A stretch of 27,966 nucleotides of DNA from Erysipelotrichaceae bacterium. GTDB taxonomy: Bacteria > Bacillota_I > Bacilli_A > Erysipelotrichales > Coprobacillaceae. The position numbers were made by a program, and so were the translations under genes. The notes beneath the pieces are model-generated. The model was not told where the DNA came from. It did no database searches and worked only from the letters and a program-made list of their open reading frames with translations. Below are positions 20,033 through 20,714 of this stretch, one piece after another. Each line of letters starts with the position of its first letter. Position 1 is the first letter of the stretch. The stretch is taken from the NCBI GenBank assembly GCA_021200395.1, contig JAJQGQ010000103.1:2747-30712 (forward strand), in the 5' to 3' direction.

Positions 20033-20669
20033 ATGGACATAGGTAATAATTTAAAAGAATTAAGGGAAAGCAATCATTGTACAATCAATGAATTATCATT
20101 AAGTATTAACATAAGTGAAGAAACTATTATTTCTTGGGAAAATAATGAAAATGAACCATCAGTAGAAGAAGTATTATTATTGAATGAGTTTTATTTAAGC
20201 AAAGCGAAAAAGACAAATATAACTACTCAACATTTACCAATATTATTTATTATAAGTATTATTTGTATTATGCGAAATCGCTTCTCTTCGCTCGCGCTTT
20301 CGCGTAATGAGCTTGAAACTATTCCGTTTTATTATGCGTGAATCATGCGATTTCGCATAATATAACTAAAGCAACCTTCACATCACATGTTTGAATATGA
20401 TATATTCACCATGTGAAGCTTGCCTTAGTTTCAAGCTCATTATATTATTTGGTTCAATCTATATGATTGAACGCTATATTTATTCTTCTTCGTTAAGTCT
20501 TGGCTATACTTTATATCGCTATATGATGGTTGGAGAATATGTCAATCCTGGTAATCCTAATTTAGAAAATATATTTAATATTTCTTCGATGGTACTGCTA
20601 ATTATCCTTATCATTACTATCATAATCGCTATTTGTCTTTTTATAAAAATCAGAAAACAATCTAAATAA
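20033..20669 (+). pseudogene. XRE-family HTH + two-TM membrane regulator, interrupted by a 172-bp insertion
   Basis: ORFs 20033-20341 and 20391-20669 join in frame into one 154-aa protein (...FIISIICI/ILFGSIY...) when 172 bp between two ATTAT copies are removed. Confidence 0.75.
20267..20443. mobile_element. 172-bp non-coding, multi-palindromic insertion flanked by ATTAT direct repeats (non-autonomous element, family unknown)
   Basis: ATTAT at 20267-20271 and 20439-20443; locally GC-enriched left part; perfect 16-bp and 17-bp internal inverted repeats; no terminal inverted repeats and no transposase. Confidence 0.7.
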
Positions 20670-20714
20670 TCACCAATAAACCTCAATTATGATATAATAA
20701 TTGAGGTGATTTTT

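Follow-up and report, generated by a model that had tools for sequence, protein, structure and literature searches.

Elements of the IS91 family have two distinct ends, lack inverted repeats and insert without target duplication at a specific target word that lies beside oriIS, with one or two subterminal palindromes at oriIS and one at terIS, beside the cut (PMC13181058). For IS801 and IS1294, the ter word equals the target (PMC13181058). The functional intermediate of IS91 is a bottom-strand single-stranded circle, and 89 bp of terIS together with 82 bp of oriIS are enough for a mini-IS91 to be mobilized in trans (PMC13181058). Natural gene-less derivatives include the IS801 miniatures of Pseudomonas syringae (229, 360 and 679 nt), which are right-end fragments that arise anew by one-ended transposition, with the transposase supplied in trans (PMC3189936). 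These fragments have no conserved left hairpin and form no stable high-copy family. To our knowledge, published IS91-family biology concerns few proteobacterial elements with tetranucleotide targets, and its natural miniatures are mainly fragments produced by one-ended transposition.

The window analysed here, a 27,966-nt stretch of contig JAJQGQ010000103.1 from an Erysipelotrichaceae bacterium, carries a 172-bp insertion that interrupts an XRE-HTH/membrane gene. This insertion is almost certainly a mobile element without genes and, judged by its sequence, very probably belongs with the IS91-type elements. The reading favored here, to which a probability of roughly 0.78 is given, is that it is a gene-less miniature that stems from a rolling-circle insertion sequence (IS) of the IS91 family in the Coprobacillaceae and is most likely mobilized in trans by it. 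The first-pass annotation had regarded the family as unassignable, but the matching autonomous relatives are IS91-family Y2 HUH elements, which makes it assignable. Its analogy with HUH elements was sound as regards hairpins in place of terminal inverted repeats, a short target word and non-autonomy, and misplaced as regards the groups it named, IS200/IS605 and REP/RAYT.

At the sequence level all the IS91-family features are found in the miniature, the absence of a duplication being only consistent with the data given the ATT at both borders. Palindromes of the IS91 type (PMC13181058) lie where expected, helix H1 stopping at the element terminus and helices H4 and H2 occupying the ori side. 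A ter palindrome beside the presumed cut is likewise shared with IS91, IS801 and IS1294/IS1294b, and the ter word of the miniature resembles the target, as in IS801 and IS1294. The size is similar to that of mini-IS91, in which about 170 bp of ends suffice for mobilization in trans. On the other hand, IS91-family targets are GTTC/CTTG tetranucleotides whereas the word used here, (TGN)TATAAT, has six letters or more, and a Xer-like tyrosine recombinase is encoded in addition by the related autonomous element. Unlike IS91 and mini-IS91, the miniature occurs in nature as an amplified family without genes, and it has a selected internal splint and, nested inside it, an inverted mini-copy; unlike the IS801 miniatures, it has kept its two ends together with a conserved fold and has persisted in several genera. 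Non-autonomous Helitrons resemble it in being rolling-circle, gene-less elements without duplication, with a hairpin near the terminating end and a short AT-rich target word, but they belong to a RepHel transposase lineage with a helicase, inhabit eukaryotic hosts and are far larger and more variable in size. The family would extend IS91-type miniatures to gut Firmicutes-type bacteria, where it has been recently active.

The 172-bp insertion, its copies and their distribution

Deletion of the 172 bp (Table 1) fuses two open reading frames, 20033-20341 and 20391-20669, in frame as halves of one gene, as the first-pass annotation had observed; the N-terminal part of this gene matches Pfam HTH_3 (E = 1.9e-9). 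The empty allele that the annotation had proposed to look for exists in a genome of the same genus (G043), where the gene is intact with a single ATTAT and reads TTTGTATTATATTATTTGG, i.e., the window sequence minus 172 bp. Because ATTAT is repeated at the borders, the position of the element boundary is ambiguous over up to 5 nt in the window copy and over 3 nt in relatives.

Table 1. Coordinates of the features discussed (window positions unless a contig of the window's draft genome, G000, is named)
Feature	Location	Strand	Remarks
Host gene split by the insertion	20033..20669	+	XRE-type HTH domain, then membrane segments
Inserted miniature element	20267..20438	-	172 bp; defined by the G043 empty site and the G000 copies
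Helix H1, terIS-like terminal hairpin	20267..20308		ATTATGCGAAA ... TTTCGCGTAAT; element end at stem foot
Internal splint	20296..20321		H1 3' arm running directly into B' (20305-20321); complements the joined element ends
Nested 53-nt mini-copy, inverse orientation	20309..20361	+	ori-like start GAGCTTGAAACTA, ter-like end CGCATAAT
Helix H3, mini-copy hairpin	about 20326-20366
Helix H4, ori-side long hairpin	20364..20430		inner hairpin 20392-20408; base AAACTAA / TTAGTTT
oriIS-like terminus	20426..20438		TAGTTTCAAGCTC; 3' arm of long-range helix H2
Host target hexamer TATAAT	20439..20444	-	ATTATA on the plus strand; adjoins the ori-side end
2.5-kb IS91-like copy (L077)	C160:907-3410
2.5-kb IS91-like copy (L078)	C296:2813-5491		includes a 172-bp miniature in its own 5' leader
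Further 2.5-kb element ends	C36, C45, C148, C222, C254, C81, C248

In agreement with the earlier description, the element has no transposase gene and a repeat finder returned no pair of terminal inverted repeats. The same program recovered the internal complementarities that had been pointed out: an exact 16-nt pair (20266-20281 with 20347-20362), contained in a longer one (20259-20281 with 20347-20369, 91% over 23 nt); an exact 17-nt pair (20305-20321 with 20426-20442); and a long stem of 20 nt (20364-20383 with 20411-20430, 90% complementary) that encloses a TGAATAT-GAT-ATATTCA hairpin. Compared with dinucleotide shuffles, the two strands fold as single-stranded DNA with z = -9.8 and -10.8, and none of 200 shuffles did as well.

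The draft genome to which the window belongs (G000; 2.45 Mb in 320 contigs) contains six complete copies of the miniature, 100% identical to one another, and five more that run off contig ends, three of them represented by their left and two by their right ends. This gives a total of at least nine, and the element is not single-copy. All six complete copies have the same internal orientation and give no sign of the invertible cassette suggested in the first-pass annotation. A second empty site lies within G000 itself, where the C296 miniature occupies the 5' leader of a 2.5-kb repeat whose paralogue on C160 lacks it. Since the complete copies are identical and a gene is disrupted, the miniature must have been active recently. 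Additionally, an unrelated public sample holds a miniature with one mismatch and different flanks; among sequencing runs, the element was found in two low-coverage contig sets only.

Five other genera of the Coprobacillaceae harbor relatives with about 73% identity, in genomes that include Coprobacillus, Thomasclavelia saccharogumia, Fimiplasma and Massilimicrobiota. A covariance model based on seven copies identified full-length 172-nt relatives in four genomes (G002, G020, G039 and G072, the last with at least 10 copies) and single copies or remnants in three others (G001, G075 and G016). The model found no miniature in 76 sampled genomes from the order's two other families, and plasmid and phage collections gave no match. 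Partial family matches in G043, G075 and G072 (L034, L035 and L037) have no transposase nearby, and 21-nt partial matches to the inner hairpin elsewhere in G000 look like chance, apparently inside coding DNA. Within its range, the miniature is a source of promoter-proximal mutation and of assembly breaks in Coprobacillaceae genomes.

Size variants were also noticed in G072 (Thomasclavelia saccharogumia), one of 200 nt (C26:6586-6785) and one of 161 nt (C102:5824-5984). In the window, a bidirectional terminator-like hairpin of 11 pairs (20680-20707) separates the XRE-family gene from the small membrane-protein ORF that follows.

Asymmetric ends and the TATAAT target

The two ends of the miniature are unlike: compared in inverse orientation, six of the first eight nucleotides agree in the window copy and four of eight in relatives. 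The asymmetry extends to the flanks. On the ori side, the element adjoins TATAAT in 19 of 21 independent insertions, the other two reading GATAAT and TAAAAT, whereas the flank at the ter-side end varies among insertions. The hexamer occurs once in the empty allele of G043. In 11 of the 19 TATAAT sites it is preceded by TGN, the extended word often being TGNTATAAT; for comparison, the background in G000 (30% G+C) is a frequency of 0.034 for TAT before AAT and of 0.08 for TGN before TATAAT.

Empty sites contain one ATTAT and filled sites read ATTRT ... ATTAT. At the left border, the window lineage has ATTAT and relatives have ATTGT; this ATTRT lies inside H1 and covaries with its pairing partner, which makes it part of the element; consequently, the ATTAT beyond the other end is host DNA. 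Insertion without target duplication is consistent with these data, and a fixed 3-bp duplication of ATT would also be compatible: because ATT is common to both borders, the absence of a duplication is unprovable from sequence.

TATAAT is the -10 promoter consensus, and TGN-TATAAT is the extended -10 word. With such a target, insertions often fall between promoter and gene. Indeed, 9 of the 21 sites show a Shine-Dalgarno sequence and a start codon within 30 nt downstream on the TATAAT strand, so that the miniature often stands between a -10-like word and a gene. Boxes of the -35 type upstream of the targets are only mildly enriched (33% versus 18% with at least 4 of 6 matches), and for this reason true promoter homing, as opposed to simple word recognition, is not claimed. 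The 5'-leader insertions are L038, L040, L051, L055, L065 and L068, together with those on contigs C88, C271 and C296 of G000; the genes at these nine sites now carry a 170-nt hairpin-rich leader. A search of the element for an outward-facing promoter or terminator gave nothing above shuffles.

Conserved fold, nested mini-copy and internal splint

The consensus fold comprises four helices: H1; the long-range stem H2, in which B', the segment directly after H1, pairs with the opposite terminus B; and the hairpins H3 and H4, which lie inside H2. Across nine distinct sequences, 19 of the 62 pairs show compensated double changes, and in H1 the pairs at columns 4/39 and 6/37 are compensatory. In H2, the seven pairs nearest to ori exist in five sequence versions across lineages, one of them with a G-T wobble. 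As the sequence of these seven nucleotides varies, the covariation argues for selection on pairing and not on a protein-binding word, although gene conversion between the two arms may offer an alternative explanation. Two copies in G002, L052 and L045, differ by a double compensatory change in H2 (GCG/CGC versus GGG/CCC), a difference that suggests ongoing selection or conversion maintaining the pairing.

Shorter natural forms of 69, 71, 120 and 158 nt retain both termini. The 69- and 71-nt forms consist of H1 and H2 closed by a short loop, and the form in G075 (115 nt, or 120 nt with the host ATTAT) consists of H1, H4 and the terminus, without B' and H3. The ends are minimal, forms of only 69-71 nt retaining both termini, and the family provides a compact natural substrate for studying how IS91-type enzymes recognize ori, ter and target.

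A nested, inverted mini-version of the element had been described in the first-pass annotation as 58 bp long (20305-20362); it is real and measures 53 nt (Table 1). It stands directly after GTAAT, in the place of which relatives have TACAAT. Without the mini-copy, the element would be a 119-nt form that comes close to the 115-nt one occurring naturally in G075. In the simplest history, a simple miniature of about 119 nt received a mini-copy in its ter hairpin, in reverse orientation, and the composite then spread.

The idea that internal segments match the junction of an excised circle was correct in substance and wrong in its details. Segments 20305-20321 and 20347-20362, which had been proposed to form this complement together, are not contiguous and hence do not; the true contiguous complement is the internal splint, which includes one G-T pair. 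In predicted folds of the excised strand, for both strands, the splint pairs with the first and the last nucleotide at neighboring positions, as if the element ends were held as a nick on the splint. Because compensatory changes are present, the pairing of the ends appears to be selected. Judging from these models, the splint may serve to hold the ends of the released strand together; internal pairing that joins the ends in this manner and is preserved by compensatory change would be an addition to known IS91 biology.

A resident IS91-family element and the proposed mode of transposition

A search for end-like motifs in G000 revealed a 2.5-kb repeat with about seven copies, several of whose left ends lie at contig breaks, and with three subfamilies (93% and 77% identity). 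It encodes an Xer/IntI-like tyrosine recombinase followed by an IS91-family Y2 transposase. The recombinase (about 300 aa) has its best matches among Xer and integron integrases, all below cut-offs. The transposase (386 aa) scores 403 bits against NCBIfam NF033538 (cut-off 125), matches Pfam Y2_Tnp and Zn_Tnp_IS91, and has readable HIH and YxxxY motifs. Related IS91-like copies are present in G002, G020 (decayed), G037, G038, G044, G069, G072 and G075. Across the 81 family genomes, the transposase was found in five of the eight that bear the miniature and in 6 of the 73 others (Fisher p = 8e-4, a value that overstates independence because the genomes are related). Three genomes, G039, G016 and G001, have the miniature and no detectable transposase; the first two are incomplete and G001 has a single old copy.

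The 2.5-kb element and its related copies all start ATTGTACTAAA. The 2.5-kb element of G000 starts ATTGTACTAAACCG and shares its ATTGTAC terminus with the relatives of the miniature. In the tail of the IS91-like elements, the complement TTTAGTACAAT is located about 130-140 nt before the right end and is directly followed by the stem AAACTTAA ... TTAAGTTT; the right end comes 12 nt after this stem and adjoins host ATTAT(A). The layout of the miniature matches: it starts ATTGTACGAAATCG, continues with TTTCGTACAAT and the AAACTAA ... TTAGTTT stem, and ends after 12 nt at host ATTAT. Between the IS (ATTGTACTAAACCG) and the miniature relatives (ATTGTACGAAATCG), 12 of 14 positions of the terminus match, as do 10 of 11 positions of the internal complement, and the tail of the C296 IS has the inner hairpin word ATATATGATATTC in common with the miniature. 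The terminus of the G000 miniature itself, ATTATGCG, is less like that of the resident IS, ATTGTACT, than the relatives' terminus is. A 14-nt inverted repeat was also noted within the 2.5-kb element, between its left terminus and a site about 130-140 nt before its right end.

The target is shared as well. Empty sites for the C296 IS in two genomes of the same genus, G042 and G043, read ggaca-ATTATATCATAAAA in host DNA, and the IS sits immediately 5' of ATTATATCA, i.e., 3' of TGATATAAT on the other strand, without duplication. The IS and the miniature therefore use the same target on the same side, and the genome harbors related IS91-family elements with the same terminus and target. Similarity between the ends of the two is at motif level only: global alignment of the miniature with the trimmed ends of the IS scores weakly (z of 1.4 to 4.4 relative to shuffles), so that the link between them depends on the anchored terminal motifs, the layout and the target. 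Neither the family genomes nor single scans of a genome collection and of a metagenome yielded an autonomous element whose ends are exactly those of the miniature. The genome-collection pattern, with 16 specified bases, was unspecific and returned mostly chance matches, only three known family loci being real; the metagenome scan, for an IS tail with the complement of the miniature, returned just two ordinary IS copies.

By comparison with IS91, the acting enzyme, the cut positions and the transferred strand would be as follows. The transferred strand is presumed to be the minus strand of the window, running from a 5' ori-side end (20438) to a 3' ter-side end (20267). The former would act like oriIS and adjoins host TATAAT; the latter would act like terIS, with a hairpin whose 3' arm ends (C/T)A(T/C)AAT. 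At the ori junction, immediately 3' of TATAAT, the minus strand would be nicked by the Y2 HUH transposase and then displaced by replication. At the foot of the ter hairpin, where the element has a TATAAT-like word, a second cut after this word would free the strand, probably as a single-stranded circle, and the released strand, folded by its internal complementarity, would have its 5' and 3' ends side by side on the splint. It would then be inserted 3' of another TATAAT without target duplication.

Insertion is probably carried out by the Y2 enzyme rather than by the companion recombinase. In the two-enzyme pathway that would involve the latter, the Y2 transposase copies out a single strand, the splint duplex forms, and the IS-encoded Xer/IntI-like recombinase integrates the element by exchanging the paired junction with (TGN)TATAAT-type sites, acting on a folded strand or on a double-stranded circle in a manner that resembles integron attC cassettes or the hairpin substrate of CTX phage. 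It is consistent with such a pathway that the recombinase gene, with its Xer- and integrase-like best matches below cut-offs, is part of the same 2.5-kb element, that a duplex across the element junction is maintained under selection and that ATT(A/G)T is present at both borders, as for a crossover core. However, B' pairing is missing from the simple 115-nt form and from the IS itself, so a junction duplex is not general; moreover, the ends are asymmetric with a conserved word at one end only, as in IS91, and no inverted recombinase-binding arms were seen around the target. Recombinase-mediated insertion is therefore considered unlikely; were it to occur, the family would be a promoter-homing one with a hairpin substrate, combining IS91-like with integron/CTX-like logic and rewiring the 5' leaders of genes. 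The family allows the part played by the companion recombinase to be tested.

The strong fold with compensatory changes and the position of 9 of the 21 copies in 5' leaders, in the interval between TATAAT and the ribosome-binding site, could alternatively reflect a structured RNA, whether a riboregulator that is mobile or an element that is excised from the transcript like an intron. Against this, the Rfam scan proposed in the first-pass annotation returned no known RNA family at E up to 10, giving only chance microRNA models far below gathering scores; the two strands fold equally well; copies in coding DNA are found in antisense, and the window copy breaks the frame; and the insertion polymorphism exists at the DNA level. 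At 172 nt, the element is also well below the size of any self-splicing intron, all those we know of being far larger. An RNA of either kind is thus scarcely credible. A classical miniature element with terminal inverted repeats was rejected, as such repeats are lacking and the bordering repeat is a fixed word, not a variable duplication of fixed length.

Hairpin ends without inverted repeats and insertion 3' of a short word are also what an IS200/IS605-type PATE or a REP/REPIN moved by a Y1 transposase or RAYT would show, as the first-pass annotation had envisaged, and these elements share with the miniature an HUH-type single-strand logic. Y1 transposase genes do occur in G000. Nevertheless, neither its complete IS605 (C207) nor its two IS200 fragments (C196 and C225) show ends related to those of the miniature or occur in association with it, which rules them out as partners; the end hairpins of the miniature are dissimilar, H1 differing in sequence from H2/H4; and terminus, layout and target are common to the miniature and its autonomous relatives, which are of the Y2 IS91 type. 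Mobilization by a Y1 enzyme is accordingly very improbable, and the IS91-family Y2 transposase remains the favored agent. The IS605-type element at C207:9361-12720 (L042) is single-copy and encodes divergent TnpA (Y1, 142 aa) and TnpB-like (453 aa, open-ended) proteins.
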